The notes beneath the pieces were generated by a model. That model ran no database searches. It saw only the letters and a program-made list of their open reading frames with translations, and was not told the DNA's origin. Of a stretch of DNA of 64,000 bases, positions 4,959 through 54,778 are shown piece after piece; the first letter of the stretch is position 1, and every line of letters starts with the position of its first letter. The position numbers and the translations under genes were made by a program. Source of the stretch: an uncultured Candidatus Saccharibacteria bacterium (GTDB lineage: Bacteria > Patescibacteriota > Minisyncoccia > Phycocordibacterales > PALSA-1337); assembly GCA_964492835.1 (NCBI GenBank), contig CAZBLC010000001.1:19596-83595 (forward strand). Direction: 5' to 3'.

Positions 4959-5630
4959 ATGAAAATACTAATCATAGAAGATGATTTGGATATATCTAGC
5001 TATATTAGGAATAACTTTATCGAGGATTCATTTACTGTAGATGTTGCTCGTAATAGCAGTAATGGCTCATATATGGCTCGTACTAACTTCTATGATGTAA
5101 TAGTTATAGATTACGCATTACCTGATAAGGATGGGATATCTTTATGTGTTGAACTTAGAGAGTCTGGAATAGAGACACCTATAATATTTTTAACGAACAA
5201 CAAAGAGATGCGTAAAAGAATCTCTGCCCTTGAGAAAGGAGCTGATGACTATATGACTAAACCCTTCGCACTAGAGGAATTGAGAGCTCGTATACTTGCT
5301 CTAGCTAGGAGACCGAAGCATGTTGAGGATCCAATACTCACAGTCGATGATCTTGTATTGGATACTAACCGAAGAACAGCTCGTAGGGGTAATACTCAGA
5401 TATATTTAACTAGAAAAACGTATAACCTACTTGAATACCTTATGAAAAACAAAGGTACTGTACTATCTAGAGGTGTCATAATGGAGTATGTGTGGAACTC
5501 TGAAGGTGATCCATTCTCAAATACCGTAGAAGCTCATATCCTTTCACTTAGAAAGAAGATTAATGTAGGAGGTAAGAGAAATTTACTTCGTAATATACCT
5601 GGTAGAGGATATATTATTGATACTAACTAG
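4959..5630 (+). CDS. OmpR-family response regulator (receiver + winged-helix); ORF opens at 4920 but MKILIIEDD at 4959 is the likely start
   Basis: Receiver motifs (IIEDD; VIVIDYALPDKDG; KPF) and the C-terminal OmpR/PhoB winged-helix region (LTRKTYNLLEYLMKNKGTVLSR...). No histidine kinase adjacent. Confidence 0.85.
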   Translation: MKILIIEDDLDISSYIRNNFIEDSFTVDVARNSSNGSYMARTNFYDVIVIDYALPDKDGISLCVELRESGIETPIIFLTNNKEMRKRISALEKGADDYMTKPFALEELRARILALARRPKHVEDPILTVDDLVLDTNRRTARRGNTQIYLTRKTYNLLEYLMKNKGTVLSRGVIMEYVWNSEGDPFSNTVEAHILSLRKKINVGGKRNLLRNIPGRGYIIDTN

Positions 5631-7858
5631 TTTAATTTAACTGTACCACTCTGAATATCCTTTATTAACTTATCAACTTGTGTCTTAAGTAGTGGGAATT
5701 TAGTACGAGCAATATTTAGTACTTCTATAGCCTTTGCATTCTGCTTATCAAGAAGATATACATATGCCAATCCTGAATATAGCTCCTGACTATCTGGTGT
5801 ATCCTTTATTAGCTTGTTGTAAATCTCTACAGCTTTAGAATATTTCTTTATACCCACATATGCTCTAATGATATTTGGATCATAGAAGCTCTGATCATTT
5901 GGGAATAGCTTTAGAGCTGTTGCCTCATTACCAGTTGTAATCAATGTTGAAATATAAAATACCTTTGCGTTTATGTTATCCGGAGCTGACTTATATGCAT
6001 TCTCCATTAGGAATATTGCCTCCTTGTCTCTCTTAACATTTAGGTAGTTAGAAGCTAGTTGATACACTATTGTCTGCTTGTTAGGTGATAGTTGATTAGC
6101 TTTTTCAAGTAATGGAGTTCCATTAGCATAATCTGATATTGAATCGTAGAATCCACCTCCAAGGATATATATTCTTGCATCATTTGGTGTTTCCTTTATC
6201 TGATCTTCAATTCCCTTCTTTGCTAGGTTATAGAAATCTATCTTTGTCTTCTCTGGTATTCCATTTTGTCTGATTACTCCTGATGCACAATTAAGTAATT
6301 GTTCTCTAATTTCTTGATTAGATAGACTTAGATCTAGATCTAGTGCTTTAACAAATGAATCTATTGTAACTGTAGGTGGCTTTGTACAAGCTCGTAAACC
6401 ATCAATTAATCTTGTATTTGCTTGTATTGGCTTAATGTTTACAACATATACCATACCAGCAAACAGGATGATGATTATAGGGGTTATTACATAATCTCTT
6501 ATCGTTATATAGTCTTCAGTTGCAATCTGTTCATGCTTTTTGAATAGCTTACAAGGAGTTCCTGGTCTTAGAGTGGATACAAAAGCTAGGAATGTAAAGA
6601 ACATTACATAGCTTGTCTGGTTATCGAATACGAATACATTGTGTATTCCATATCCGACAAGTAATCCGATTAATACTGATTTCTGTGCTACTGTCTGATC
6701 ACTCTTTAAGATATATATTAGAGAAATTACATATAGAGAGAGGTATGCTAGTAGACCTAGTAATCCCCCTGCTACCAACCAATCTAGGAACACACTGTGT
6801 GCTCTATCAAACCATTGTTCATGTGCCCACATCTTAGGATTGTAGTTTGCATTGAAGATATAGTTGAAGTTCTCCTGACCAATTCCGATTATCGCAGTCT
6901 TTACACTTCCAAAAGATTCTTTAACTGCCATTGGCCATATATATCCTCTTGCTTGTGTCTTTGTGTCTGTTATAGATATAGTAGCAATACGTCCTAGTAC
7001 AGAGTTGTTCTGTATCCATTTAGCATCTCTGTTGTAAAAGAATATGATACCCAGAAGGATAATACCTCCGATGATACTTCCTGAAATTATTCTAGACTTA
7101 TTTGTCTGTCCTGTTTCCTTTCTTCCAAGGATCGCATACAGAGCAAGAGTTATTATCACTGCAAGTATCCAACCTAGTATTGTTCCTCTTGTTGCTGTTT
7201 GGAACATTACAAAAGAAAATATAGCTGACAGAATGGTATAGATATAGAAATAGTGATTCTTCTTAGAGTAGTACGCTATTGCCATATACATAGCTATAAA
7301 TGCATTTATTAGCATGTAAATTGCCATATATGCTGAATTACCTAGGGATGCATCTACACGACTTCCTTGATGAGTTTTAGCCCAACCAAAGAACTGGAAT
7401 AGGCCGTATATAGCAGTAATAAAACCAGCTATCAAGATAACATCGAAAAACTTCTTCCAATTCTCTTTTGTAGTAAGTACTGATGAAAGCACCATAATGT
7501 ACATCCATAGATGGACGATTATTATCCAACCCTCCATTCTTTCAAAATTTGACCAGATACTACGTAGAGGATTTAGTCCGAATATGTTTGCTATTAGAGT
7601 TATTACAGTAAATACCGTGACAGCAATAGTTATACCGTTCATCTTAGGTAATATACTTGTATCCTTACCCTTCTCTCTAAAGATTAGTATGACCCACAAT
7701 GCAAACACTATCTCTACCAATATTCTAAATACAAATGCCTTTCCGGAGATGAATGGGAAGAATAGCGGACTGGCTACGTATAAAGGTATAAAAGAAATTG
7801 CTCCAAGACCTATAATAATGGCGTATTTAAAAATACTGTTGTTTGTGGTATTGTTCAT
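5627..7858 (-). CDS. Polytopic membrane protein with a Wzy_C (O-antigen ligase/polymerase-like) core and a C-terminal TPR-repeat domain
   Basis: About 10 predicted TM segments with the FQTATRGTILGW loop typical of O-antigen ligase/Wzy_C. The C-terminal ~250 aa are Tyr/Ala/Leu-rich TPR-like repeats (AYVGIKKYSKAVEIYNKLI...). Confidence 0.6.
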   Translation of the reverse strand: MNNTTNNSIFKYAIIIGLGAISFIPLYVASPLFFPFISGKAFVFRILVEIVFALWVILIFREKGKDTSILPKMNGITIAVTVFTVITLIANIFGLNPLRSIWSNFERMEGWIIIVHLWMYIMVLSSVLTTKENWKKFFDVILIAGFITAIYGLFQFFGWAKTHQGSRVDASLGNSAYMAIYMLINAFIAMYMAIAYYSKKNHYFYIYTILSAIFSFVMFQTATRGTILGWILAVIITLALYAILGRKETGQTNKSRIISGSIIGGIILLGIIFFYNRDAKWIQNNSVLGRIATISITDTKTQARGYIWPMAVKESFGSVKTAIIGIGQENFNYIFNANYNPKMWAHEQWFDRAHSVFLDWLVAGGLLGLLAYLSLYVISLIYILKSDQTVAQKSVLIGLLVGYGIHNVFVFDNQTSYVMFFTFLAFVSTLRPGTPCKLFKKHEQIATEDYITIRDYVITPIIIILFAGMVYVVNIKPIQANTRLIDGLRACTKPPTVTIDSFVKALDLDLSLSNQEIREQLLNCASGVIRQNGIPEKTKIDFYNLAKKGIEDQIKETPNDARIYILGGGFYDSISDYANGTPLLEKANQLSPNKQTIVYQLASNYLNVKRDKEAIFLMENAYKSAPDNINAKVFYISTLITTGNEATALKLFPNDQSFYDPNIIRAYVGIKKYSKAVEIYNKLIKDTPDSQELYSGLAYVYLLDKQNAKAIEVLNIARTKFPLLKTQVDKLIKDIQSGTVKLN

Positions 7859-7867
7859 GATAATAAG

Positions 7868-9151
7868 ATGATATCACACTATAAAAACAAACTCTATTAC
7901 TTACTAAAAGCAAGTGAGAAATATACAAAAACGGACATGATATACCTAATTAGAGGTGGTTTTTGGCTTACTCTAGCTAATGTATTAACATCAGCAATGG
8001 TGTTTATAATGGCTATCGTATTTGCAAATCATATACCAGCTCATGAATATGGGGTATATAAATATTTCCTATCAGTACTTGGAATATTGTCGATCACAAC
8101 ATTGACAGGTATAGGAGGCATGGTCTCACAAGCAGTTGCACGAGGACTCGAAGGATCGTTAATAGAAGGATTAAAGGCAAAAATACGTTGGGGTACTGTT
8201 GGTGGAGTAGTTAGTATTTGTATCGGAATTTATTATTATATGAACGGAAATAATGAATTAGCGACTGTATTTATGTTAGCTTGTCTATTTATTCCTTTTA
8301 TGGACTCTTTTCATATATATCAAAATTATTTACAGGGTAAAAAAATATTCAATGTTTCTTCACGCTACATTACAATTAGTCAATTCTTTGCTACAGCAAT
8401 CATGATAACCATCGTATTGATAACAAGTAATATTTTTATTATCTTACTTACATATCTTATATCATGGACACTTGTTAGGTTATTCTTTTTTGTAAAAACA
8501 ATCAAACTTTACCCACCCAACAAAGAAAGCGATCCCAACACAATAATAATGGGTAAACACTCAAGCTTTATTGATATAATAGCTACCCTAATAGGGTCCC
8601 TTGACTCGATACTGATTTTCCATTATTTAGGTTCAATTGAACTTGCAGTCTATAGTTTTGCCATAGCACCCGTAACACAAATGGTTAGTCTGTTTAGAAA
8701 CATACCGACACTAGCTATGCCTAAAATGGCCAATCGTCATGTAAATGAAATAAAACAATTACTATATAAGAGGATTTTTGTAATATTTATTATATCAATT
8801 ATGGTTGTTATATTATATATGATTTTCGTCCCATATATTTATCAGATATTTTTCCCAAAATATCTGATGTCGATTGAACTATCACGCATATACGCCCTAA
8901 CAATATTAATTTCTATACCATTAACAATGTTGAGTTCAGCAATAAATGCAAAAATAAATATGTTACCAAAAAAAATACTTTATTTATGGAACATTCCAGG
9001 TTTTATATCTACTATTTTTATCTTCGTATCTATTCAAAAAATAGGTGTAGAATCTGTTGTTTATGCTAGGATATTATTACTTCTTGCAACAGCTGCAATA
9101 TCTGCCTATCTTTGGTTTTATATTGTAAAAAAGCAAAATCAACAGCAGTAA
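7868..9151 (+). CDS. Polysaccharide biosynthesis/oligosaccharide flippase-like membrane protein (Wzx/MOP-like)
   Basis: 427 aa, ~12 hydrophobic segments, no soluble domains. Divergent from the Wzy_C gene at the head of the glycan locus. Confidence 0.5.
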   Translation: MISHYKNKLYYLLKASEKYTKTDMIYLIRGGFWLTLANVLTSAMVFIMAIVFANHIPAHEYGVYKYFLSVLGILSITTLTGIGGMVSQAVARGLEGSLIEGLKAKIRWGTVGGVVSICIGIYYYMNGNNELATVFMLACLFIPFMDSFHIYQNYLQGKKIFNVSSRYITISQFFATAIMITIVLITSNIFIILLTYLISWTLVRLFFFVKTIKLYPPNKESDPNTIIMGKHSSFIDIIATLIGSLDSILIFHYLGSIELAVYSFAIAPVTQMVSLFRNIPTLAMPKMANRHVNEIKQLLYKRIFVIFIISIMVVILYMIFVPYIYQIFFPKYLMSIELSRIYALTILISIPLTMLSSAINAKINMLPKKILYLWNIPGFISTIFIFVSIQKIGVESVVYARILLLLATAAISAYLWFYIVKKQNQQQ

Positions 9152-11044: not shown

Positions 11045-11893
11045 TTACTTTGTTACAGTACCCAATTTTTCTTTTAATATTTTTCTATATACTCCCTCTT
11101 CCCAATATCTGTAATCCTGTCTCTTTAGACCAACAAAAAATTCAATCATAAGATCATAAAGTGCCCTTAGAGATGCGTATCTGAACCCCTCTCTCTCTTT
11201 CCTCATATTTTTAGAAAAATAAATCTTTTTAAATTTATATTGGAATTTCCACAAACCTCGTAGTAAATGACCAAAGAATGATTTTGTCTTTGGTGTTCTT
11301 TCAATCTCCAAACTCAAATAATAAAAGCGACTGTGCGGCATAAGTAACCAATGTTTCTCCCTCTGGCAATGCCATACTGGATATGGGAAGATGATAGGTT
11401 TAAAACTATGCATCAAATGCTCATGTACTCTGGAATCAGAATCAGTACCGTGAAAAACTTCATTTCCACGCCTAGTAATTCTTTCAATTGATTCTTCAAA
11501 GCTAGTTAGCAAATCATCACACCTTACAATAGTTACCACCTCTGGTCTGTTCTTAATTAAAAATGGTCTGATATTTTCTTTAAAACTTTCACTAAGCCTT
11601 TCGTCAGCATCAAGCACCAAAATATAATCCATGGTACATTTTGACATTACAAAGTTCTTTGCAAGCCCAAAATGAAAATCTCCTGGAGACTTATAATGAT
11701 GAAGTGCTATCTTTGTATTTCCCTTATTTATATAACTTTGAACTATCTGAACAGTGTCATCTAGTGATCCAGTATCTGAAATAATTATTTCATCAGCAAA
11801 TTCTAGAAGTGATGAAATAAATCCGTCAATACGCTTTGCTTCAGTGTTTACAGTTGCACAAACAGAAATAGTCGGTGTTACGATTTTATTCAT
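11045..11893 (-). CDS. Glycosyltransferase family 2 (GT-A)
   Basis: N-terminal GT2 pattern ISVCATVNTE...IIISDTGSLDDT and the DXD-like LDADE. Confidence 0.75.
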   Translation of the reverse strand: MNKIVTPTISVCATVNTEAKRIDGFISSLLEFADEIIISDTGSLDDTVQIVQSYINKGNTKIALHHYKSPGDFHFGLAKNFVMSKCTMDYILVLDADERLSESFKENIRPFLIKNRPEVVTIVRCDDLLTSFEESIERITRRGNEVFHGTDSDSRVHEHLMHSFKPIIFPYPVWHCQREKHWLLMPHSRFYYLSLEIERTPKTKSFFGHLLRGLWKFQYKFKKIYFSKNMRKEREGFRYASLRALYDLMIEFFVGLKRQDYRYWEEGVYRKILKEKLGTVTK

Positions 11894-11937: not shown

Positions 11938-12438
11938 TTATGGTATGGATTTTAAAATGTAATCTAGATCGATCACATTACTCTCTATCAAAATAGCATT
12001 TTTGCACCCCGCTCTCATTGCAGCTTCTATATCTGTTTTGCTATCCCCTATCATATAACTTGCCTTAATATCTATATTTAATTCTTCCACTGCTAAATGA
12101 AAAAGACCTGGTTCTGGTTTTCTACATATACACTTTTCGTCTTTATGGTGTGCACAAAAATAGAATGATCTGATGGATGTACCTATTCTATCTAAATCCC
12201 TATTAATCTTTGTGTGGAGTCTTTTAACAAACTCCTTAGACATCTTTCCTTTTGCAATCCCTGCTTGGTTACTTATAACCACAACAACATAGCCTGCGGA
12301 ATTGATCTTTTTTACTAGCTTTTTAGCATTTATATTCCACTTAAATTCGCTTATTTTTTTTACGTAATCATGTTCTGCTGGTTTTTTATTTAGGACTCCA
12401 TCTCTATCCAGAAAAACTGCTCTTATTTTATTATTCAT
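11938..12438 (-). CDS. gmhB: D-glycero-D-manno-heptose 1,7-bisphosphate phosphatase (HAD-IIIA)
   Basis: AVFLDRDGVLN HAD motif I, GmhB-type Cys/His zinc cluster (CAHHKDEKCICRKP), ~166 aa. Confidence 0.8.
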   Translation of the reverse strand: MNNKIRAVFLDRDGVLNKKPAEHDYVKKISEFKWNINAKKLVKKINSAGYVVVVISNQAGIAKGKMSKEFVKRLHTKINRDLDRIGTSIRSFYFCAHHKDEKCICRKPEPGLFHLAVEELNIDIKASYMIGDSKTDIEAAMRAGCKNAILIESNVIDLDYILKSIP

Positions 12439-12447
12439 ATTTCGAAT

Positions 12448-13455
12448 TTATGCTTTTTCTTGATCAAAGACAATTTCAACACCTTTATTATCAAAACCTA
12501 CCTCAATTTCAGCAAAATTATTTAGTCTATTTTTGTTTGCGTAGTCTATGACCGACCTTCTAATATCTTTATGTTTATTTTCTGGAGCTAAAAAAAGCAC
12601 ACAGCCTCCACCACCAGCACCAAGTACTTTTCCTCCCCATGCACCATTTTTTATCCCTAACGAATACAGATCATCTATAGTGCTATTTGAAATTTCATCC
12701 GCAAAAGTCTTTTTTAGAGTCCAGCTTTTGTGTAGAATATCTCCAGCTTTTTTAAAATCTCCCTTTTTAATTGCTTCACTGAAATGTGATACGAGAGAAG
12801 CTATTTCCTTGTATCCATCGATCTTTTTATCGATATTTTTAGTTTGATTGGATAATACACTGGAAGCATCCCTAGTTATTCCAGTAAAGAAAAGCAGAAG
12901 GCTTTTTTCAAATTTATCTTTATTCTTTTTAGATATAGCTAATGGTTCAATAGCTACTTTTCCACTTTTTTTAAATTTATAAATATTGAGTCCTCCATAA
13001 GATGCAGCATACTGATCTTGTTTGCCTATTGGTTCCTTTACAAGATCAATTTCTACCGTGCAGGCCTTTTCAGCCAAGCTCTGCTTATTTATTTTTTTAC
13101 CATTGAGCAGATGGAGTCCCTTAAGCAAGGCTACGGTAAAACTAGAAGATGAACCGAGTCCTGTCCTAGCTGGAATCGACGCGAAGGAGCCAATTTCTAT
13201 GTTATTATTTATTCCAAGAGTCAATAAGATTTCACGAACCCTGTTATGTATCAAATCTTTTGGGTGATCGACTGTTTCAGTTGTTGAATATTTAACTATT
13301 ACTTTATTTACCAAGGGTGTGTGCTTAATAGCCAAGTATACATATTGATTTATAGTAGTTGAAACAACACAGCCTCCGTGTTTCTTATAAAAATCTGGAA
13401 GGTCTGTACCCCCGCCAATAAAACTTATTCGAAGTGGTGCTCTTACTAAAATCAT
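12448..13455 (-). CDS. hddA: GHMP-family sugar kinase, D-glycero-alpha-D-manno-heptose 7-phosphate kinase-like
   Basis: HddA-like N-terminus LRISFIGGGTDLPDF, GHMP ATP-binding motif PARTGLGSSSS, 335 aa. Confidence 0.75.
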   Translation of the reverse strand: MILVRAPLRISFIGGGTDLPDFYKKHGGCVVSTTINQYVYLAIKHTPLVNKVIVKYSTTETVDHPKDLIHNRVREILLTLGINNNIEIGSFASIPARTGLGSSSSFTVALLKGLHLLNGKKINKQSLAEKACTVEIDLVKEPIGKQDQYAASYGGLNIYKFKKSGKVAIEPLAISKKNKDKFEKSLLLFFTGITRDASSVLSNQTKNIDKKIDGYKEIASLVSHFSEAIKKGDFKKAGDILHKSWTLKKTFADEISNSTIDDLYSLGIKNGAWGGKVLGAGGGGCVLFLAPENKHKDIRRSVIDYANKNRLNNFAEIEVGFDNKGVEIVFDQEKA

Positions 13456-14132
13456 TATTTATTATTATTTAATCTATTTATATCCTCTGGTGAAGTGAGT
13501 TGTGTATGCATTTCATCTCCTATAACTGCAAAAACTTTATGATCTTTTGCAAATTTTTTCATTAAATCCGTGAAATAGTATTCGTTTTTTACTTCATGTA
13601 ACTCAGGCTCATAATTAAAAATGTCAGAATTCATAATCATAAACCCGTTTGTAGCAAGGTTCGATGTAGGATTTCTAGGCTTTTCAATTACATCGATTAT
13701 CTGGTTTGTACTATCAATAGTCGCAATACCAACATTTTTTGGATCAGGAACGAAGTAGCACAGCCATGAAAATTCATATTTCAAACAATCTTCTATTTCT
13801 TTTTTTGTTAAAACATCATCTGCATATGAAACTGCAAATCTCTCTCCTTCTTTAATTAATTCCCTTGTTTTAATAAATCCTAGAGCGTTTCCGTTTTTTT
13901 CGCCTTCAACATAAGTAATCTTCCTTCCATAAAGTTCGTTACCACAATACTCTTTTATTTTTTCGCCTAAATATTTTACAACTAAAATAACTTCATCAAT
14001 CTCATTTGGCAAAGAAAGAAATAGATGATCTAGTGCAGTCTTACCTCTATAGACTACAAGTGGCTTTGGTGTGGTTAGTGTTATCGGTCTCATTCTCTGT
14101 CCTTCTCCGGCTGCAAGTATTATAAGCTTCAT
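13455..14132 (-). CDS. hddC: Sugar-1-phosphate nucleotidyltransferase (D-glycero-alpha-D-manno-heptose 1-phosphate guanylyltransferase-like)
   Basis: MKLIILAAGEGQRMRP nucleotidyltransferase motif. Contiguous with hddA and gmhB. Confidence 0.75.
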   Translation of the reverse strand: MKLIILAAGEGQRMRPITLTTPKPLVVYRGKTALDHLFLSLPNEIDEVILVVKYLGEKIKEYCGNELYGRKITYVEGEKNGNALGFIKTRELIKEGERFAVSYADDVLTKKEIEDCLKYEFSWLCYFVPDPKNVGIATIDSTNQIIDVIEKPRNPTSNLATNGFMIMNSDIFNYEPELHEVKNEYYFTDLMKKFAKDHKVFAVIGDEMHTQLTSPEDINRLNNNK

Positions 14133-14156: not shown

Positions 14157-14966
14157 CTATTCTATGGCAACTCCTTTCCTAATAGCAATAAAATTGGCAT
14201 ACATTATCTTTTCGTATTCTGGACAATATTTAACTTTTTCAAGTGTAATAGGCTTCACTTTGTATATGTCATATTCATTTTGAATAAAAAAATCGTAAAT
14301 ATCCTTGAAGAATACTCTTGAGTATATTGCGGCATTACCAAACTCAAATTGAACCATATCAATTGATTTATCTTTAAATAAGTTCTTTGCTCCCTGAAAA
14401 ACAAACAACTCATGGCCTTCTGTATCGACCTTTAATAGATCAATATGCTTTATATTTTTTCGTTTACAATACTCGTCTAGAGTATCTGTTTTTACAACTT
14501 TTTTTTCAATATTATAATTTTCTTGTTCCATATCATAAAATGAATTTAACTCCGGTGAGTCTTTATTTATATACATCTCTCTATTTCCAATAGTCTCTCC
14601 AAGTGCAATATTTTCTAAGTATATATTCTTACTTGTCGAGACATTTTTCATTAACTTACCAAATGTAGTACTGTCTGGTTCAAAGCAATATACTTTGATA
14701 GTATCTCTATAAGAAAGAATATGCTTAACATAGTCTCCAACATTCGCCCCGACATCGAAAACAATTTTTATATCCTTTTTTTTAAACACCAAATCCAATA
14801 AACGATATTCGCCGTTTGTTATCATATTTGAATTGTGTTCCCCTCTACAAAAATCCACATATCGAGATGCTAATGAATAAATGAATGGTCTATATATCGG
14901 TCTTTTATAATTAAAAAGCCCTCTATTGATAAAATATATTATAATTAATTTAATTTTTTTGATCAT
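14157..14966 (-). CDS. FkbM-family methyltransferase
   Basis: Methyltransf_21 motif FDVGANVGDY, 269 aa. Confidence 0.75.
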   Translation of the reverse strand: MIKKIKLIIIYFINRGLFNYKRPIYRPFIYSLASRYVDFCRGEHNSNMITNGEYRLLDLVFKKKDIKIVFDVGANVGDYVKHILSYRDTIKVYCFEPDSTTFGKLMKNVSTSKNIYLENIALGETIGNREMYINKDSPELNSFYDMEQENYNIEKKVVKTDTLDEYCKRKNIKHIDLLKVDTEGHELFVFQGAKNLFKDKSIDMVQFEFGNAAIYSRVFFKDIYDFFIQNEYDIYKVKPITLEKVKYCPEYEKIMYANFIAIRKGVAIE

Positions 14967-14967
14967 G

Positions 14968-16128
14968 TTACCAAAATATTACTTCCGAATTTATATTTTC
15001 TAATATATCTCTTTTTATTTCTTCATTATAGATACCAGCTTTTATAATAACATTTACCTTACCTTTCCCTTTTAGAATCTTAGGGTGTTCTACCATAAGT
15101 TTTGTTCCATAAAGTCTTTTCTTATTTTTCACCTGACTATTATCGAGCAATCCGACTATTTTATCAACTTTTAATCCAAACTGGATTAGTGTTTGTGAAA
15201 AAATGTGTGCTCCGAAGAGATATACCGGTTCGTTTGAACTACCAATCTTCATGTTTAAATCATCAATCATCTCTTTATGATAATTTATATAATCCATAAA
15301 AAGTTTTTTATATTGAATGTATTTATTTGGCAATGTAGATACATCCTCCACAACGTCCGTCTTCTCTGTTGCATAGAAAATACTATGTGGATCTCCATAA
15401 TACTCTTTTTCTAAGATCTTAAAACCCATACTCTGGAGTATATAATCTGTTATTTCTTCAGTAAGAAAGACAGTATGTTCAAAATTTAAGCAATTTGTAA
15501 ACTTCTTATCCAGCATTGGTATCATATTTGGAAAAGTAAATATATGTTTATCACCCCTTTTAAGAAATGAATTTATTTGCTTTAAAAATTTAAATGGTTC
15601 GTATGTATGTTCAAATACATGTGAATGTACGATAGTATCTATTCCTTCATCTAGTTTAAATTTGTCATCAAACCAACCCTTAATTAATTTAATCTTAGGA
15701 TTTGTGATATATTGTGCATTTGGTTCAACAGTTGTCCATTCTACGTCTGGAATTACCGTCCATAGATTCCTAGCTATATGGTCATGTGCGCCACCTATCT
15801 CCAGAACTCTCTTTGGGTTAAATTTTGAAATAAATTTAGCAAAAGCTACATAATGATCCTGCCAAACCTTTCCAACGCCATCATTATGTTGATCTAAATA
15901 CAATATATCAAGGGGTAGGAGCTTCTGAAGCTGTATAAGACCTGTTTCTGGGCATATATCCCAAATCATATCGGACACTATATCTTCATCTTGTGGTTGC
16001 TCTACACAACCCATGAATACTGGAAAATCCTTGAATTTATGTAGAGTTTCTAGATTTTTCTTATTTGATAATAGGCTTTTATCTCTAATGATATAGTTAG
16101 TATTCCTTTTCATAGATTCATTGTACAC
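14968..16128 (-). CDS. SAM-dependent methyltransferase with a C-methyltransferase-type C-terminal domain (sugar C/O-methyltransferase candidate)
   Basis: Central VLEIGGAHDHIARNL SAM motif. The C-terminal region (VYLFGAHIFSQTLIQFGL...VNVIIKAGIYNEE) resembles the C-terminal domain of NDP-hexose C-methyltransferases. Confidence 0.55.
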   Translation of the reverse strand: MYNESMKRNTNYIIRDKSLLSNKKNLETLHKFKDFPVFMGCVEQPQDEDIVSDMIWDICPETGLIQLQKLLPLDILYLDQHNDGVGKVWQDHYVAFAKFISKFNPKRVLEIGGAHDHIARNLWTVIPDVEWTTVEPNAQYITNPKIKLIKGWFDDKFKLDEGIDTIVHSHVFEHTYEPFKFLKQINSFLKRGDKHIFTFPNMIPMLDKKFTNCLNFEHTVFLTEEITDYILQSMGFKILEKEYYGDPHSIFYATEKTDVVEDVSTLPNKYIQYKKLFMDYINYHKEMIDDLNMKIGSSNEPVYLFGAHIFSQTLIQFGLKVDKIVGLLDNSQVKNKKRLYGTKLMVEHPKILKGKGKVNVIIKAGIYNEEIKRDILENINSEVIFW

Positions 16129-16155: not shown

Positions 16156-16872
16156 TTAACCCTCTTTTATTACCTTCTCTGTCTCTATTAGTGCTTGAGG
16201 ATTACCAGTATCTAGCCACGTTTCGAAAGGAACCCATTTGAGCTTTGTGCCCTCTAACAAAAGCTTTTCTATAACAGAGACGTCTCCTAGCGCCTGATTA
16301 TTTCGGTCATTTTTATATAGACTTTCAACAGCCCCCCAAAATTTTTTATAATCATGTATTCCAGTCATGCCAATATGTATAGAATCAAAATCTGTAATTC
16401 CTTTATCATTTACTTTTGCTAAATAACCATCTTTAATTTTATGACTTCTGTATTGCCTTACATCCATCTTTGTTGTCTCTGGGTCAATGACATACCCAAT
16501 AACCCAATCTTCACTTGGTTCTGGTATCTTTTCAACTACAATGGTATCGCAAGCATGAAAAATAAATGGGCACTGTAGATTATCCTTTGCACAGAGCATT
16601 GAATATAGTAGACTACTTCCGTCGCCAATATATTTATCCACTATCACGAACTCAAAATTATAATCTTGGTAATTCTTCAAAAGATAATTTTTTACTTGAT
16701 CCCCATGATATCCAAGTGTAATGACAAATATAGAATCCTTTGGGTATGAATTAAAAATATACTCAATAGTTGGCCTACCATTTATTTTAACTAGTGCTTT
16801 ATTCGTTGTTTTTGTAAGTTCTCCCAGACGTGAACCGGTGCCTGATGTTGTGATAAGTATTTTGTATTCCAT
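16156..16872 (-). CDS. LicC/IspD-like sugar-phosphate (or phospho-alcohol) nucleotidyltransferase
   Basis: N-terminal ILITTSGTGSRLGELTKTTNKALVKINGRPTIEY matches the (A)GxGTRL...PKxL nucleotidyltransferase motif. 238 aa. Confidence 0.65.
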   Translation of the reverse strand: MEYKILITTSGTGSRLGELTKTTNKALVKINGRPTIEYIFNSYPKDSIFVITLGYHGDQVKNYLLKNYQDYNFEFVIVDKYIGDGSSLLYSMLCAKDNLQCPFIFHACDTIVVEKIPEPSEDWVIGYVIDPETTKMDVRQYRSHKIKDGYLAKVNDKGITDFDSIHIGMTGIHDYKKFWGAVESLYKNDRNNQALGDVSVIEKLLLEGTKLKWVPFETWLDTGNPQALIETEKVIKEG

Positions 16873-16910
16873 GTATTTAAATGGTATTACTTAATATGAG
16901 TAATTTATAA

Positions 16911-17477
16911 TTATTTCTTACCTCCCCACTCTCCACCTTTTTCTACTTTCAAATTAAGTAAATCTAACTTTTTAAAAAATTTTTCCATTATGTGCAAGCA
17001 TGCTTCTGCAACCGCTCCATGTCCACCCGAAGTCTTTGTCACGTAGTTCGCATATTCTTTTATTGCTGGAAAAGCATTTGCCGGGGCAATGGAGTATCCA
17101 ACCTTATCAAAAACCATTGCATCAAATATTCCATCACCCATATATACAGTTTCCTCTAGTTTGAATTGACTTCTAATCCAATCGATTCTTTCAAATGTAC
17201 TTACCTGAAAAAGCGGTAATTTCATATCTTGTTCAATTCTTTTCTGTGTAATTGGAAATCCTTTTTTATCGCCAGTTACTGCAATGATATTTAAAAATGG
17301 TTTTACAAGCAGCAATGCGTCATGATCATCTGGACCAAAAATCTTTGCTGACTTACCTTCTAAGGTGTAGTGAAACTGGCCGTCAGTAAAAACTCCATCT
17401 ACATCAAGAATAAAATTTTTTATATTTTTTTTCATATTATTTTTCATTAAGTGCTTTATATAGATTATATTTACCAA
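16911..17477 (-). CDS. KdsC-like HAD-IIIA phosphatase
   Basis: FILDVDGVFTDGQFHY is near-identical in pattern to the KdsC motif (LDVDGVLTDG), with a GDGIFD-type motif III. A likely start at MKKNIKNF removes the overlap with the upstream gene. Confidence 0.65.
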   Translation of the reverse strand: MVNIIYIKHLMKNNMKKNIKNFILDVDGVFTDGQFHYTLEGKSAKIFGPDDHDALLLVKPFLNIIAVTGDKKGFPITQKRIEQDMKLPLFQVSTFERIDWIRSQFKLEETVYMGDGIFDAMVFDKVGYSIAPANAFPAIKEYANYVTKTSGGHGAVAEACLHIMEKFFKKLDLLNLKVEKGGEWGGKK

Positions 17478-18678
17478 AATAAAATAGGAAGATGTTAAAC
17501 GGATAATGATGCAATGGTGACATGTTTAACCAAATAATCGCACGTAATATCTTTATTTTATTCAGATCATTTCCTTTTGAAATAATAAATTCATCAAAAG
17601 TCTTTTCGCACTCAACAAGATGTGGTTTTCTATCTATACTACAAGTCACACTATTACCTTTTATCTTGATGGCAAATCTGTTCTGAGTCACAATATCATG
17701 ATTTACAACCAAATTGTGATATAGCTTTGCCAAATCATAATACATGTCTCCTGTTTTAAGCAAACCACCAAAGTCTTGTCTCCAATCAAGTAATGTATAT
17801 TTATTCTTATTTAAAATTACATTTTCCAAAATAAAATCACCATGGAACTGTGTTTGCACACCATTTGAGAGGTTATCGAAATTAACCTTTGATAGTAGAG
17901 TATTAATGTCTGGAACTTTCTTACCATTGATAGTCATTTTTCTATCTACTATTTTATTTACCGACATGAACTTATTTACTCTTTCCTTTGTCTTTTTTTC
18001 GTAGAAATCTAAACAAATTTTCTTAAATTCCTCGACAGGGACTGTCTTTTTTGATTTCCATAATTTAATACTAGCCCAGTTTAAAAAATTTTTAAAGTTT
18101 TTTGGGTTAGCAACGTTTGAATATGTGTCTCCTTTAATATATGAGTATTTATAGAAATTTTTCTTTATTTCTAAAGTTTCTGGAACCAAACCTCCCAGAA
18201 GCTTTCCTCTTTCAACTCTAGCTAAAATCTTCTTCTCATCAGCGAAAAACTTTATCGCAAAATCTTTGAAGAAAAAAAGGGATTCGTCAACCTTATCCAA
18301 ATTATCAAATTTATCATGAATCATTTCACGAACCTGTAATAAAGACTTCATGTCGTTTACCTTAAAAAAAATATTTGGATATCTTTTATCGATAACTAGA
18401 TCACTGTGGTGGTGAATGTGCGGAAATTGTAAAGAATCACTAGTTTGTTCTGAACCAATAAAAGTAAATTTTATATTAGGATAGACAAGAGATACAAAGT
18501 CCTTTAGGTGGTCGACAAAGTAATCTGTTGAAATGATAAACTCTGTTCCAATTGGGTACATTTCAATTATATAGGAAACTATAGGTTTTTTACCAAGACG
18601 TATTAGAACAGGATTAGTATATTTTGCCAGTTCCTTAAAATCGAATCTTTTTTCATCAATAGGTATATATACTTTCAT
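17437..18678 (-). CDS. Choline/aminoglycoside-kinase-family phosphotransferase (small-molecule kinase)
   Basis: Brenner catalytic motif HGDFILENVIL followed by a DWRQDFGG DFG-like motif. 413 aa. Confidence 0.6.
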   Translation of the reverse strand: MKVYIPIDEKRFDFKELAKYTNPVLIRLGKKPIVSYIIEMYPIGTEFIISTDYFVDHLKDFVSLVYPNIKFTFIGSEQTSDSLQFPHIHHHSDLVIDKRYPNIFFKVNDMKSLLQVREMIHDKFDNLDKVDESLFFFKDFAIKFFADEKKILARVERGKLLGGLVPETLEIKKNFYKYSYIKGDTYSNVANPKNFKNFLNWASIKLWKSKKTVPVEEFKKICLDFYEKKTKERVNKFMSVNKIVDRKMTINGKKVPDINTLLSKVNFDNLSNGVQTQFHGDFILENVILNKNKYTLLDWRQDFGGLLKTGDMYYDLAKLYHNLVVNHDIVTQNRFAIKIKGNSVTCSIDRKPHLVECEKTFDEFIISKGNDLNKIKILRAIIWLNMSPLHHYPFNIFLFYFGKYNLYKALNEK

Positions 18679-18702
18679 GTTATCAAACTATACTAAATCA
18701 GA

Positions 18703-19401
18703 TTACTTATCAAGGATTTTCTTTAATTCAATTATTTTGGTATCAACGTCACCTTCAGGCTTAAATATCGTTGAAGTTCCACAAACAAGCATATTGGCTC
18801 CTCTCTTTATCATCTCTGGGGCAGTATCTGGAGTTACTCCACCATCTATTTCTATTAGCATATTTGGATAGTTCTTCAACTTCCTTTTAAGCTCGGTTAT
18901 CTTATCCATCATTTCAGGAATAAGCTTGTGACCTAGAATTCCAGGATTTATAGCCATAAGCATAACTAGATCAATATCATTTAAAACATAGTCCAAAGTA
19001 GAAAGGCTGGTTGCAGGGTTTAGGGCCACTCCCGCCTTTTTACCAGTTGCTTTTATTAACTTAATTATTCTGTGTAGTTGTGGTGTAGATTCTTCATGAA
19101 CGACAATAATATCAGCTCCAGCATCAGCAAATATCCTTATAGAATTTTCCGGGTTATTAACCATTAAATGTACGTCAATGGGTATATTTGTTATTTTTTT
19201 GATTGCTTGAAGGATTTCAGGATGCAGGCCAAAACGAGGAACGAACTGATTATCCATAACATCAAAATGAATATAATCAATCCCGCCCTTCTCTAATTTT
19301 TCTATTTCGCCCTTAATATCTATCATATCTGCACACACAAGAGATGCTGATAATTTATAGTTTTTTTGAGATTTTTTTTTGTTTATTGTTTTCATATGCA
19401 A
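18703..19401 (-). CDS. rpe: Ribulose-phosphate 3-epimerase-like (TIM barrel)
   Basis: LSASLVCADM...IHFDVMDNQFVPRFG matches Rpe motifs (SILSAD / HxDVMDG.FVPN). 232 aa. Confidence 0.75.
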   Translation of the reverse strand: MHMKTINKKKSQKNYKLSASLVCADMIDIKGEIEKLEKGGIDYIHFDVMDNQFVPRFGLHPEILQAIKKITNIPIDVHLMVNNPENSIRIFADAGADIIVVHEESTPQLHRIIKLIKATGKKAGVALNPATSLSTLDYVLNDIDLVMLMAINPGILGHKLIPEMMDKITELKRKLKNYPNMLIEIDGGVTPDTAPEMIKRGANMLVCGTSTIFKPEGDVDTKIIELKKILDK

Positions 19402-19412
19402 TTAAAGTATAA

Positions 19413-20843
19413 CTACTCCAAATTAGAATGTCTTTCCCACATAGTATCATGTGTCTCACCAAGTTCCTCCATAAGCTTTAGAACGATCGCATCAAAGAAT
19501 ATGGCCAGAGACTGTTCATTTAATGTTGTCATTGGCTGAATAGAAATAAAATTGTCTATCTTTTTGGTCTTTGATGGTGCCTTTATTTCAACAACACAGT
19601 CGGCTAATTTTCCAATTCTAGATTCAGGATTACCAGTTACAGCAGCAATCCTTGCTTGATTTCTTTTAGCAATTAAAGTCAATTCGTAAATGGTCTGTGT
19701 CTCACCTGACCCAGAACAAACTAGAAATAAATCTTCTGCCTTTATGGATGGAACGTTAGCATCACCTAGGATATATGCGTCTATTCCCATATGCTTTAAT
19801 CTCATTACAAACCCCCTTACCGCCATTCCAACTCTACCAGCACCGCAAGCCACTATTTTTTTAGCACTTAAAATATGCTCAGTTAGAACACTCGCCTGTT
19901 TTTCATCAATTTTTAATAGGACAGTTTTTATTTCAGTTAAGATATTCTCCACTCTTTCTATGGTTGTCTGATTCAAGTTATTATTTTTATAGAGCCCGCG
20001 TTCTACAAGTGAATAACCTTTTTCGTTGATATTGTCATCTATACATGCAAATAATTCTTGATTTGGGATAGCATATTTGATAGGTAGAATATCAAATCTC
20101 TCAGGGTTTTTTTCCATTTCAAAAGGAGTCTGAATCGGATATTTTTGTATTTTATTCTTAAATATATTCCTATTAATCTTTTCGAACAATTCTTTATGTC
20201 CTGTTGGCTTAATAATTCTAAGTTTTGTAAGTAGACCAAAAGCCTTGAATATATATTTTTTAAAGAAAATAGGTAGTCTTTTTTTATCGTTTATCCACAT
20301 TTTTTCTAAAAACTCCTTTTTAAAAATTCCACACATTGAAATAAGATAATAAGGATATCCGGTATTTCTTATCATCTGCCATTTATTTTTATCTAAATCC
20401 AAATAACTTATAGCCTTTCTTTTATTTAGATTAATTTTATGACTAAGCTTATTAAAAGACTCAACTGATTTACCAAATAGCCACCAAGAATAACTTATAT
20501 AATCCGCGTCTGCCTTTCTCATCTCTCTAATCACCTCATCTAAAACCTCAGGCTTTGCAATATTCAAATGGTCTTCATTCCAAACAAGTATATAGTCATA
20601 TCTTGCTTCCTTTATCATATCCAAAGCATTTGTAATCCAGCCCCTATTGTCATCTAGTAAACTAAATATAACTAACTTATTTCCAAGCTCATTCTTTAAA
20701 AAATCTAATGCTTCCTCACGAAATGTCCCTCTAACATTTATTAGCCAATTGTCACTAATAAATTTAAAAGACTTAAAGGAGCTTTTAAAATGGTCAAGTC
20801 TAGTGAGTGAATTTATTCTTAGATTTCCAAGTATAGTTATCAT
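19413..20843 (-). CDS. Two-domain protein: N-terminal ~300-aa domain of unknown function fused to a C-terminal SIS sugar-phosphate isomerase domain (GmhA/HxlB/KpsF-like)
   Basis: C-terminal VACGAGRVGMAVRGFVMRLKHMGIDAYILGD...LFLVCSGSGETQ is a canonical SIS fold signature. N-terminal domain unassigned. Confidence 0.6.
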   Translation of the reverse strand: MITILGNLRINSLTRLDHFKSSFKSFKFISDNWLINVRGTFREEALDFLKNELGNKLVIFSLLDDNRGWITNALDMIKEARYDYILVWNEDHLNIAKPEVLDEVIREMRKADADYISYSWWLFGKSVESFNKLSHKINLNKRKAISYLDLDKNKWQMIRNTGYPYYLISMCGIFKKEFLEKMWINDKKRLPIFFKKYIFKAFGLLTKLRIIKPTGHKELFEKINRNIFKNKIQKYPIQTPFEMEKNPERFDILPIKYAIPNQELFACIDDNINEKGYSLVERGLYKNNNLNQTTIERVENILTEIKTVLLKIDEKQASVLTEHILSAKKIVACGAGRVGMAVRGFVMRLKHMGIDAYILGDANVPSIKAEDLFLVCSGSGETQTIYELTLIAKRNQARIAAVTGNPESRIGKLADCVVEIKAPSKTKKIDNFISIQPMTTLNEQSLAIFFDAIVLKLMEELGETHDTMWERHSNLE

Positions 20844-36816: not shown

Positions 36817-38499
36817 TTACTCTACCTTAAGTACGTTCCTAAGTACATCTTCTGAAACCTCCTTTTTTGTGTCGGTATTTGGAGTTGTAGTCTGCGTTTT
36901 GCCAGCATTCTGAGTGTTTCCTAGTATAGATGCTAATGCATTTTTTAATTCATTTACACGCTCTGGTTGTGCATCCTTCTTATGATTATTCTTTGGTGTA
37001 TTTGAGAGTGAATTCAGTGATACTGAATTAAGTTTAGGCATTGGACTTACAAATGTCTTTGTAGGCTCTGCTACTTTTACAACAGGCTTTTCTACTACAA
37101 CTTGAGGTGCAGGTGGTGCTATTGGCTTTGGTTCTGGAGTAACTGGCTTTGGTACCTCTACAGGTTTAGGTGCTGGAGCAATATCTTTTGGTTTGTCCTT
37201 CATTACTGGCTTTATCGGCATCATCCAGTCATCAATTGCTTTTTCAACATCAACTCTCTTGCTTGCAAACTGTGATCTTGAACTCTCTATAACCCGTTCC
37301 ATACTTGAACTCTCAGGTTTTGCAATTGGAGGCAGGGTAGTTGCAGAGAATGGCGCTGAACTTACTCCGTCTATCATGAGTTTTAAGTATATTTGATATA
37401 TACCCAAGTTAACTATATCTTCTGCTGTAAATTGTGGTGAGAATTCTTTCTCGAGTACTTCAGCATCAAATGCTCCTACACGGAATACAATCATTGTTCC
37501 AACGTTACCGAATACAGCATTACGTACTTCTTCTTCCATTTGTTCGATGTACTGGTGAGCAATTGTAAGATTAAGTTTGTATTTTCTAGCCTCTGAAAGA
37601 ATATCTGCAAATGATTCATTGGCGAATGACTGGAACTCGTCTACAAAGAGATAGAAGTTAGGGAGTGTCTTAAGCACACGATCTGGTACGTCTGCGCGAG
37701 ATAGCGCAGCTAGATATATTTTTGTAATTATCATTCCTCCTAATAGGTTTGCATTTGATTCTCCAATTCTTCCTTTTGATAGGTTAACGATAAAAATCTT
37801 ACCTTCATCCATCATCTTACGAATATTGAATGATGATTTTGGCTGCCCTATCATGTTTCGTATTAGCGCATTGGCTGTGAACTGTCCGATCTTGTTTTGT
37901 ATCGCTGGCACTGCTTCTGCAGCCATTCTTTCTGTATAGTTTGCAAACTCTTGTACCCAGAATGCTTTAACTGATGAATCTGTGACATGAGAGATCACAA
38001 GCTTTCTATATTCTTTGTCTGAAAGCATACGATTTACTCCAAGTAGAGTTGCATCTGGATATTCAAGTAGAGCAAGTAGGGTGTTTGTAAGGATATATTC
38101 CATACGAGCTGACCAAGCATCTTGCCAGATCTTCTTGAATGTACTCATTAGTCCAGATACTACTAGATGTCTTTTGTCTGGGTCTACGTTCTCAAGTACG
38201 TTAAAGGATATTGGATAGTCCATATCGAATGGAGCAAAATATACTACATCCTTCTGTCTATGTTCTGGTACATATTCTAGCAGTAGCTCTGCAGTCTTTC
38301 CGTGAGGATCAATGAATGCCATTCCTTCCCCATTCTTAATATCCTGAACAGCCATGTTCTCAAGTACAGTTGATTTTCCCATACCTGTCTTTCCGATAAC
38401 GTACACATGCTTAGTCCTATCTTTTGCTTTAATACCAAAAGTTACCTTTTTGTTTCTAGAGTCTGTCTGTCCAAAATATGTTATTTTTTCGTCGTTCAT
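36817..38499 (-). CDS. Soluble P-loop NTPase of the TraG/VirD4/HerA-FtsK (DUF87-like) superfamily with a Pro/Lys/Val-rich C-terminal tail
   Basis: Walker A VIGKTGMGKST and Walker B LFVDEF. TraG-D_C-like IAHQYIEQ region. No N-terminal TM helices. C-terminal low-complexity PAPKPVEVPKPVTPEPKPIAPPAPQVVVEKPVVKV. Confidence 0.6.
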   Translation of the reverse strand: MNDEKITYFGQTDSRNKKVTFGIKAKDRTKHVYVIGKTGMGKSTVLENMAVQDIKNGEGMAFIDPHGKTAELLLEYVPEHRQKDVVYFAPFDMDYPISFNVLENVDPDKRHLVVSGLMSTFKKIWQDAWSARMEYILTNTLLALLEYPDATLLGVNRMLSDKEYRKLVISHVTDSSVKAFWVQEFANYTERMAAEAVPAIQNKIGQFTANALIRNMIGQPKSSFNIRKMMDEGKIFIVNLSKGRIGESNANLLGGMIITKIYLAALSRADVPDRVLKTLPNFYLFVDEFQSFANESFADILSEARKYKLNLTIAHQYIEQMEEEVRNAVFGNVGTMIVFRVGAFDAEVLEKEFSPQFTAEDIVNLGIYQIYLKLMIDGVSSAPFSATTLPPIAKPESSSMERVIESSRSQFASKRVDVEKAIDDWMMPIKPVMKDKPKDIAPAPKPVEVPKPVTPEPKPIAPPAPQVVVEKPVVKVAEPTKTFVSPMPKLNSVSLNSLSNTPKNNHKKDAQPERVNELKNALASILGNTQNAGKTQTTTPNTDTKKEVSEDVLRNVLKVE

Positions 38500-38560
38500 A
38501 TGGAGCTTTAATATGTTTATATTCTAGCATGAAATACTTATGGTAAGTATTTAATTTTCC

Positions 38561-38594
38561 CCATAAACAAAACTCCCGCTTGGAAGCGGGAGAG
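38561..38594 (-). terminator. Rho-independent terminator downstream of the pilin gene
   Basis: ctcccgctt-cc-aagcgggag hairpin followed on the minus strand by TTTTGTTTAT. Confidence 0.6.
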
Positions 38595-38616
38595 ATGTTT
38601 AAAAAGAATTTTATAA

Positions 38617-39081
38617 CTAGCAAGTAACGTCTGGTGCAGTACCTCCTAGCATAGTTGCTGCTCCTTCCTTAGTGTTACCTGTACTATCAACACAGTAGAA
38701 GTTACCTGATCCACCTCCTAGTCTAGCCTCAACTGCCCAAGCAGATCCACTTGTATAACATGTCAAAGTTGTTCCAGATGGATAACTGTCTGTATCTGAA
38801 AGATTTACGATTCCACTTGTTGAATCAGTCCAAGGTGTTGATGAAGGTGTTGCTGAACATCCGTTTGTATTCGCAGATGCTCCGTAGTTTCCTGGAGTAA
38901 CATAATATGTCTCCATAGCTCCTCTTATACTAGCCAATTGACCCTTGATCTTAGCATCATTACCCTTTGTTCTAGCTGTGTTCAATGAAGCTAATACCAC
39001 TGATGATAGAATACCGATGATAGCGATAACTACAAGCAACTCAATCAATGTAAAACCTTTTTCTAAATATGATTTCTTCAT
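38617..39081 (-). CDS. Type IV pilin (class III signal peptide prepilin)
   Basis: MKKSYLEKG|FTLIELLVVIAIIGIL, the canonical prepilin peptidase site with Glu+5. 154 aa, C-terminal Cys pair. Confidence 0.9.
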   Translation of the reverse strand: MKKSYLEKGFTLIELLVVIAIIGILSSVVLASLNTARTKGNDAKIKGQLASIRGAMETYYVTPGNYGASANTNGCSATPSSTPWTDSTSGIVNLSDTDSYPSGTTLTCYTSGSAWAVEARLGGGSGNFYCVDSTGNTKEGAATMLGGTAPDVTC

Positions 39082-39221
39082 AACGAAATTAATTAACCTA
39101 AATAAACTTTAATAATAATTACTTATGGCATAAGTATATCAAACTATAGATAAAGATAGCAACGCTATGTGGATAACCTTGTTGTATTCAACAAGAGCTG
39201 TCCTGCATAGGATAACTCTAG

Positions 39222-40430: not shown

Positions 40431-40437
40431 ATAAAAA

Positions 40438-41496: not shown

Positions 41497-41500
41497 AATA

Positions 41501-41890: not shown

Positions 41891-41891
41891 A

Positions 41892-43613: not shown

Positions 43614-43617
43614 AAAA

Positions 43618-43935: not shown

Positions 43936-43936
43936 A

Positions 43937-44488: not shown

Positions 44489-44492
44489 ATAT

Positions 44493-45125: not shown

Positions 45126-45143
45126 TGAGATAATTATAGTTGA

Positions 45144-47760: not shown

Positions 47761-47767
47761 CATTCTG

Positions 47768-47854: not shown

Positions 47855-47916
47855 ATACTTTCCCATATACTATACGGAAATTATGATACTTTTACAAATA
47901 TTGATAGTATATATGG

Positions 47917-54669: not shown

Positions 54670-54689
54670 ATATTATTAATTATTCTAAG

Positions 54690-54777: not shown

Positions 54778-54778
54778 A

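Follow-up and report, generated by a model that had tools for sequence, protein, structure and literature searches.

What is made by a compact set of three sugar-activating genes embedded in the long glycan locus of an uncultured bacterium, and is this set, as a first-pass annotation had proposed, a GDP-heptose module of the hddC-hddA-gmhB type? The question concerns positions 11938-14132 of a 64-kb window (the whole stretch of DNA that was analysed, 64,000 nucleotides of contig CAZBLC010000001.1). According to the listing of open reading frames (ORFs), this interval is filled exactly by three minus-strand ORFs. A transferase, a kinase and a phosphatase gene had been called there as contiguous, and the ORFs, Pfam and NCBIfam agree on this with scores far beyond chance. 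The layout is as follows:

13455-14132, minus strand: sugar-1-phosphate nucleotidyltransferase (NTase) of the 'NT_A' type, 225 amino acids (aa), Pfam NTP_transferase at 1.7e-21
12448-13455, minus strand: GHMP kinase of the HddA/WcbL type, 335 aa, Pfam GHMP_kinases_N and GHMP_kinases_C
12439-12447, minus strand: spacer of 9 nt separating the stop of the kinase from the start of the phosphatase, read from the sequence
11938-12438, minus strand: HAD-IIIA phosphatase of the GmhB type, 166 aa, Pfam HAD-type domains, GmhB as top NCBIfam family

The ATG of the kinase overlaps the stop codon of the upstream transferase by 1 nt. The triad lies among some 27 consecutive minus-strand genes (9152-36812), encoding also GT4 and GT2 glycosyltransferases, methyltransferases, an AsnB-type amidotransferase, a short-chain dehydrogenase/reductase (SDR) epimerase, a UDP-glucose-dehydrogenase-like protein and a polysaccharide deacetylase, and flanked on one side by plus-strand genes for a Wzx-like flippase and a Wzy_C/TPR protein. 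The identities of the three genes, the conservation of their residues and their linkage in relatives were all observed directly. As a whole, the triad is probably a cassette for making a nucleotide sugar by the GHMP ('alpha') heptose route, and its product would serve the surrounding glycan locus. The pathway is of a known type with two departures: the transferase belongs to another clade, and the locus contains no isomerase gene.

The kinase carries both GHMP domains (PF00288, 6.6e-13; PF08544, 3.9e-11; Pfam). Among the NCBIfam families, HddA ranks first with 160.7 bits (6.2e-47), ahead of the fucokinase domain (108 bits) and mevalonate kinase (79 bits). Against the PDB, WcbL of B. pseudomallei comes first (3.2e-45, 158 bits), followed by the heptose kinases of B. 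thetaiotaomicron (3k85, 1.8e-36, 129 bits) and C. jejuni (4n3o, 3e-35, 125 bits), the fucokinases being found at ~1e-16 to 4e-17 (62-66 bits) and mevalonate kinase and galactokinase at ~1e-12 (up to 50 bits). The protein thus groups with the characterised heptokinases and not with the galactokinase or mevalonate kinase clades (158 bits for WcbL vs. up to 50), as its earlier description as HddA-like had implied.

In WcbL, R13 and D163 are the catalytic residues, mutation of R13, D22, S118-120, Q162 or D163 abolishes function (activity or capsule), Q162 has been linked to the accommodation of the seventh carbon of the heptose, and mannose is bound in the sugar pocket of the crystals (PMC4691232). 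In the PDB alignment, the equivalents of the mutated residues in the window kinase are R9, D18, S102-104, Q146 and D147, all conserved. In 91 columns, conservation among 119 homologues reaches 95% or more; the window kinase keeps 88 of them, and its three deviations (L to I, L to F and P to E) are conservative or surface-type. The named homologues all belong to the Candidate Phyla Radiation (CPR/Patescibacteria), namely to Liptonbacteria, Kaiserbacteria, Jorgensenbacteria, Parcubacteria and Minisyncoccia, and a metagenome scan with the kinase gave 13 loci, none above 51% identity. Judged by its sequence, the enzyme would be a 1-kinase for the 7-phosphate of D-glycero-D-manno-heptose, acting on the alpha-anomer.

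As for the phosphatase, its best NCBIfam family is GmhB (PRK08942, 154.6 bits, 1.9e-45), with the HisB models at 76-84 bits, and it lies above the cut-offs of two further HAD models (TIGR01656, 136.3 vs. 84.15 bits; TIGR01662, 110.7 vs. 44.6 bits). Among the PDB entries, four GmhB structures (87.3, 86.8, 85.6 and 82.7 bits) stand ahead of HisB-N (53.4 bits), the E-values being 9.5e-24 for E. coli GmhB (3l8e) and 2.6e-13 for HisB-N. HAD motifs I-IV can be read in the translation as DRDG, SNQ, CRKP and GDSKTD, together with a shortened zinc loop, C-A-H-x6-C-I-C. The top NCBIfam family and the PDB ranking agree with the GmhB label already given to this gene, the product of which is predicted to be a heptose-1,7-bisphosphate 7-phosphatase.

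The transferase gave another picture than the HddC identity first put forward. Its best NCBIfam family is Arch_glmU (TIGR03992) with 130 bits, HddC coming only seventh with 58.9 bits for a cut-off of 300 (NF049965), outranked by six families: archaeal GlmU, the Thermoproteota bifunctional enzyme, AglF, RmlA-long, MurU and mannose-1-phosphate guanylyltransferase. Against the PDB, ST0452 (2ggo) reaches 6.4e-18 and RmlA 3.3e-13, vs. 2.4e-6 for HddC of Y. pseudotuberculosis (6jq8). The grouping is thus with the N-terminal domain of archaeal GlmU/ST0452, AglF and RmlA, and the hddC label had to be dropped. Since the transferase is not an HddC orthologue, the 'GDP' of the first-pass annotation is left unproven, even though the heptose reading is supported. 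The gene context argues for keeping the role of heptose-1-phosphate transferase, but neither the name hddC nor GDP. The protein would accordingly be named a putative heptose-1-phosphate nucleotidylyltransferase, a functional analogue of HddC rather than its orthologue.

This context was found repeatedly in the loci of relatives (numbered L001 onwards). Wherever the flank suffices, homologues of NT_A that are 43-71% identical have the kinase as their neighbour, and an NT_A homologue stands beside an HddA-like kinase in L001, L009, L010, L011, L026, L027, L028, L030, L031 and L039, the kinase being close behind the transferase in L027, L028, L030, L031 and L039. In L081, the kinase and a GmhA-type gene lie 3.5-6.5 kb upstream of the transferase, with the kinase on the opposite strand. 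Concerning the transferase relatives that are 30-43% identical, no heptose kinase was found within their flanks (8 kb at most). Four of these distant loci were inspected and contain single, paired or tandem-fused NTases, three of the four next to housekeeping genes (efp, mnmA and sua5 among them). The named transferase homologues are mostly from CPR (e.g. Giovannonibacteria, Magasanikiibacteriota, Harrisonbacteria and Yanofskybacteria), archaea appearing below ~35% identity. The window transferase thus belongs to a subclade that heptose cassettes have taken over from a general NTase family of CPR and archaea. The cassettes of L004, L006 and L007 have a second, unrelated NTase type (24% identity), which scores best on mannose-1-phosphate guanylyltransferase.

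Relatives at about 40% identity are tandem-duplicated two-NTase fusions (461-467 aa) or two adjacent NTase genes:

L037, 8001-9404: tandem or paired NTase relative, beside efp and mnmA
L044, 8001-9386: tandem or paired NTase relative
L053, 7281-8684: tandem or paired NTase relative

Which nucleotide is transferred was approached through the residues that read the base. In HddC, Glu80, the first Glu of the ExEPLGTGGA motif, reads guanine (PMC6981941). At the corresponding place, the window transferase has E76-G-E-K-N-G81-N-A-L-G, with the Glu five residues before the invariant Gly. Inferring the nucleotide from this motif was rejected, the position being just 49% conserved in the family. In most of the family, Gly takes the place of the Gln with which uridylyl- and thymidylyltransferases read the base, and the window enzyme has V-E-G instead of V-Q. 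GDP on the one side and all other nucleotides together on the other have about equal chances. CDP- and UDP-beta-heptoses, which come from HldE-type enzymes, are known (PMC11461863, PMC11573728), so that a product other than a GDP-sugar would not be unprecedented in principle.

The SDR found in the cassettes of relatives was also considered as an indicator of the nucleotide and rejected: it is GalE/UDP-sugar-epimerase-like and absent from the window, and so uninformative. This SDR, present in many CPR heptose cassettes, matches Pfam GDP_Man_Dehyd, yet its nearest relatives are UDP-sugar 4-epimerases and CDP-tyvelose 2-epimerase, and not GDP-mannose/GDP-heptose 4,6-dehydratases; an insertion splits the match in two. 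The SDR of L011 also matches ADP-heptose 6-epimerase. From these matches, the cassette SDR of the relatives is likely an epimerase of nucleoside diphosphate (NDP)-heptose. The genes concerned are:

L006, 9636-10760: cassette SDR
L007, 6886-7992: cassette SDR
L011, 8860-9999: cassette SDR

Several observations weigh against the heptose cassette as read here. The kinase misses the HddA equivalog cut-off (160.7 vs. 600 bits, NF049969), a threshold that, on a model of 338 positions, admits only very close relatives of the seed. The phosphatase stays below the GmhB cut-offs (154.6/178 bits for PRK08942, 120.8/149.6 for TIGR00213 and 103.8/250 for NF050049), as do the HADs of the canonical CPR cassettes, which score 144-146 bits on the GmhB model, lower than the window HAD; and its identity with the HADs in the cassettes of L009, L010 and L026 is just 33-36%. 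The transferase is nearer to UTP/dTTP-using enzymes than to HddC, and its Glu80-like position is Glu in 59 of the 120 family members, the rest of the motif being different. Finally, five GmhA-type queries gave no tblastn match at E<=0.01 within the 64-kb window, and no gmhA lies within 10 kb of the cassette in L001/L002.

That gmhA is not adjacent to the triad had been noticed before, and neither tblastn nor Pfam found one in the window. Likewise, Pfam and NCBIfam agree that the sole SIS domain is the C-terminus of the protein encoded at 19413-20843, Pfam having found no further SIS domain or SIS_2-dominated protein on the scanned window ORFs (five small ORFs at 47203-47856 and 58622-63265 were left out). 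Among the relatives, a GmhA-type gene directly follows the kinase in 8 of the 11 other distinct loci with a kinase 50-63% identical, and in every locus where the kinase is 50-57% identical a SIS_2 gene stands directly behind it (L004, L006, L007, L009, L010, L011, L013 and L014, all with NTases). Of the latter, L004/L005, L011, L013 and L014 are without a GmhB-type HAD; the others have one. Two SIS_2 genes were scanned, those of L010 and L026, and gmhA (TIGR00441) is the best NCBIfam family of both. Linkage of gmhA to the kinase is thus present in those eight loci as well as in L026 and L027, and absent in the window and in L001-L003.

In L009 and L010, the order is NTase (57-59% identical to that of the window), HddA-like kinase, GmhA-type SIS_2, GmhB-type HAD and GT2, and a gmhA of ~196 aa sits between kinase and phosphatase, where the window has its 9-nt spacer. 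The order in L011 is NTase, kinase, GmhA and SDR. L026 (kinase 59%, transferase 64% identical) has the order of the window, i.e. NTase, kinase, HAD, GT2 (282 aa), methyltransferase, GT4 (414 aa) and flippase, with a divergent gmhA just upstream of the triad, which indicates that gmhA is positionally labile. The closest syntenic relatives, L001-L003 (kinase 63%), are likewise without gmhA; their triad ORFs are intact at just 54-65% identity, which argues for selection. The gmhB of C. jejuni, located outside the capsule cluster, is a precedent for an unlinked pathway gene (PMC10680097). Given this precedent and the lability of gmhA, the simplest reading places the gmhA gene, most likely, in another part of the genome. 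The HADs of the window/L001 lineage have 165-166 aa and a short zinc loop, those of L009, L010 and L026 184-187 aa; the HADs of L010 (12314-12868) and L026 (11002-11565) are ~51% identical, for kinases at 52-59%. These comparisons suggest that the stretch from the kinase to the GT2 may have been swapped by recombination in the window/L001 lineage upon loss of gmhA.

The protein with the SIS domain belongs to a second module (16156-20843), located directly upstream of the heptose triad. This module and the genes after it are:

19413-20843, minus strand: fusion of a GT-A-like N-terminal domain (290 aa) with a SIS domain of the 6-phospho-3-hexuloisomerase (PHI)/HxlB type, 476 aa
18703-19401, minus strand: Rpe, above the curated cut-off
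17437-18678, minus strand: APH-like kinase
16911-17477, minus strand: KdsC-like HAD
16156-16872, minus strand: NTase of the second module
14157-16128, minus strand: methyltransferases after the second module

The module is conserved in L001, L011 and L012 as the fusion, Rpe, the APH-like kinase, the KdsC-like HAD, the NTase and a 380-aa methyltransferase, NTase and kinase being fused in L001. It coexists with gmhA in L011 and stands without any heptose genes in L012. With 79 members among 5.8 billion proteins, the fusion family is a very small one, and no matching description of the module was found in the literature searched. From its gene content, the module probably makes another NDP-sugar, besides that of the triad, and it is a more unusual feature of this locus than the heptose triad itself.

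The SIS domain of the fusion scores 189.1 bits on the PHI model TIGR03127, above the cut-off of 160, and its PDB search gave YckF/HxlB of B. subtilis (1m3s, 1.3e-39, ~41% identity), with no GmhA match even at E<=1. An AlphaFold (AF2) model of the fusion (pLDDT 85) matches PHI structures with TM 0.84-0.93 in Foldseek, then KpsF/KdsD-type domains, GmhA being absent from the 50 matches listed. Across the family, the SIS residues do not vary (25 of 25 members), no lineage-specific change being seen. The hint given earlier that this domain might replace GmhA is therefore unlikely to hold, as the domain is PHI/HxlB by sequence and by model and belongs to a module that is independent of the triad (L011, L012).

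All Foldseek matches of the model are to SIS domains; the N-terminal domain has a weak GT2 match in Pfam. This N-terminal domain (19974-20843) also occurs alone (~280-300 aa) or fused to a cupin in place of the SIS domain (~400 aa), and some domain of the sugar isomerase type seems always to accompany it. A cupin-fused version is:

L026, 460-1650: 396 aa, 49% identical

The heptose genes of L011 (6512-9999) are without a GmhB-type HAD and those of the window without a GmhA, and in both loci a HAD phosphatase and a SIS isomerase are encoded by the second module next to them. These complementary gaps could be a coincidence or could reflect a sharing of enzymes between modules.

Other explanations of the triad have to be weighed with these data. 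The cassette of the window and L001 might have switched substrate and activate another omega-phosphorylated aldose, for instance a hexose 6-phosphate or a product of the SIS/Rpe module, via a 1,omega-bisphosphate. It would then resemble LmbP, LmbK and LmbO, which treat an octose in this manner in lincomycin biosynthesis. Such a switch would fit the absence of gmhA from the window and from 21 kb of the closest syntenic relative, the divergence of the HAD of this lineage (33-36% identity to those of L009, L010 and L026), the mannose in the sugar pocket of the WcbL crystals (PMC4691232) and the second sugar-phosphate-making module directly upstream. It is nevertheless unlikely, because the kinase retains 88 of the 91 near-invariant columns and all the tested WcbL residues, including Q146 (Q162 in WcbL), the window HAD scores 154.6 bits on the GmhB model vs. 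144-146 for the canonical cassettes, and L026 combines the same triad order with a gmhA next door. At the other extreme, the triad could be a non-functional, decaying remnant left after the loss of gmhA. The first gene of the pathway is indeed missing from the locus, but three intact ORFs, tightly packed (1-nt overlap, 9-nt spacer), with their catalytic motifs kept, and a gmhA-less triad maintained in L001-L003 with proteins 54-65% identical, make this scarcely credible.

A further explanation keeps the heptose and changes its source: the HxlB-type SIS domain of the 476-aa fusion, possibly together with the Rpe-like epimerase, would make an aldoheptose 7-phosphate from sedoheptulose 7-phosphate in place of GmhA. 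The fusion holds the only SIS domain of the window, it is found a few kb upstream in both lineages that have no gmhA beside the triad (window, L001-L003), and L011, with its heptose genes devoid of a GmhB-type HAD and a HAD in the neighbouring module, hints at shared enzymes. Against this stand the PHI assignment of the domain (189 bits for a cut-off of 160, YckF/HxlB at 1.3e-39, no GmhA match at E<=1), the fit of the AF2 model to PHI structures (TM 0.84-0.93, no GmhA among the 50 matches listed), the occurrence of the fusion with gmhA in L011 and without heptose genes in L012, and SIS residues that are invariant across all 25 family members; this replacement is very unlikely. A more far-reaching reading, in which NT_A derives from UTP/dTTP-type ancestors and has lost the base-reading Gln, and/or heptose 7-phosphate arises without GmhA via the adjacent PHI-type SIS/Rpe module, is conceivable, though we rather doubt it; the nucleotide sugar that NT_A would then make is not known to have been described for the GHMP route.

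For the preferred reading, a heptose cassette served by a distant gmhA, we infer from homology and gene context what the substrates and the nucleotide are and where gmhA lies, like every step of the pathway. Sedoheptulose-7-phosphate would be converted into heptose-7-phosphate by an unlinked GmhA, and the kinase would phosphorylate the latter to alpha-heptose-1,7-bisphosphate. The GmhB-type HAD phosphatase would remove the 7-phosphate from this bisphosphate to give alpha-heptose-1-phosphate, from which the transferase would form a nucleotide-activated heptose, where the nucleotide may be GDP. The glycosyltransferases of the Wzx/Wzy_C-type locus would then use the activated heptose, the Wzx-like protein would flip the glycan, and the Wzy_C/TPR protein would hand it on. 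The GT2 gene downstream of the triad (11045-11893) was considered as a dedicated heptosyltransferase and set aside as unproven: in L011, the same block of GT2, methyltransferase, GT4 and flippase follows the other module and not the heptose genes.

Both ends of the glycan locus carry genes of related interest. At one end (5627-9151), the Wzy_C protein ('O-antigen ligase' family), which has C-terminal TPR repeats, and the Wzx-like flippase are found. A type IV pilus set (36817-46277) adjoins the other end, with PilC, PilM, two ATPases of the PilB/PilT kind, one that is TraG/VirD4-like, and a pilin marked by an N-methylation motif. In an organism without lipopolysaccharide, the Wzy_C protein could be, by analogy, a PglL/PilO-like protein O-glycosyltransferase, and a heptose glycan might decorate the pilin. 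The remaining content of the window includes enolase, iPGM, type IV pilus genes and a tmRNA, with 28-40% G+C, and this gene content and G+C fit a CPR/Patescibacteria genome. Other features of the window are:

54689-55840: free-standing LAGLIDADG-domain ORF (353 aa) and, immediately beside it, a tRNA-Ser(GCT) gene
58513-58588: tRNA-Ile, anticodon TAT
61753-62171: tmRNA, tag peptide AKSAITKAKSTVSPYFGANSFAFAYATV

CPR/Patescibacteria are uncultured, have reduced genomes, and their surface chemistry is almost unknown. The window and its relatives indicate that GHMP-route heptose cassettes occur in CPR glycan loci, with two different transferase clades plugged into the same cassette. They also lead to the prediction that a surface glycan or glycoprotein of CPR contains heptose; it might be a pilin, as the type IV pilus genes adjoin the locus. 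The triad is a small enzyme set suited to reconstitution in vitro. The existing picture of heptose activation is unchanged by this locus.

Compared with known systems, the window transferase has its closest sequence relatives in ST0452, the N-terminal domain of archaeal GlmU, RmlA-long and AglF. It differs from ST0452 and archaeal GlmU by having no acetyltransferase domain, by the replacement of the canonical base-reading Gln and by the linkage of its subclade to heptose enzymes. The logic of the three enzymes, from an omega-phosphorylated aldose to a 1,omega-bisphosphate and an NDP-sugar, is also that of lincomycin biosynthesis, where the GHMP kinase LmbP, the GmhB-like phosphatase LmbK and the NTase LmbO work on an octose 8-phosphate; that system differs by its sugar and by a dedicated upstream transaldolase and isomerase.

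With the HldE/ADP-heptose route, the triad would share the heptose-7-phosphate precursor, the 1,7-bisphosphate intermediate and the GmhB phosphatase. That route relies on a ribokinase-type kinase (beta-anomer) and a cytidylyltransferase-type adenylyltransferase, and neither fold is present in the triad. The first-pass annotation was right to take the Gram-positive-type GHMP (alpha) route, and not ADP-heptose, as its analogy. A survey of KEGG modules lists ADP-heptose biosynthesis alone, and this for Paceibacteria only (PMC9166423). Unlike this KEGG-based assignment, the heptose genes of the window and of the relatives examined are those of the GHMP route.

The GHMP heptose route is known from the S-layer glycan of Aneurinibacillus thermoaerophilus, the capsule of C. 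jejuni (Cj1424, Cj1425, Cj1152 and Cj1423), Yersinia pseudotuberculosis and Burkholderia pseudomallei (WcbL, WcbN and WcbM). The window differs from these systems in its transferase, which is of another clade than HddC (EGEKNGNALG in place of ExEPLGTGGA), in a locus without gmhA and in its host, which, judging from the homologues, is one of the CPR/Patescibacteria, organisms not known to have an outer membrane. What it has in common with them is a GHMP-type anomeric kinase for heptose 7-phosphate, with all the tested active-site residues of WcbL, a GmhB-type HAD-IIIA 7-phosphatase and a small sugar-1-phosphate nucleotidyltransferase, the genes being clustered within a surface-glycan locus; and with C. 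jejuni it would share one pathway gene located outside the cluster (PMC10680097).

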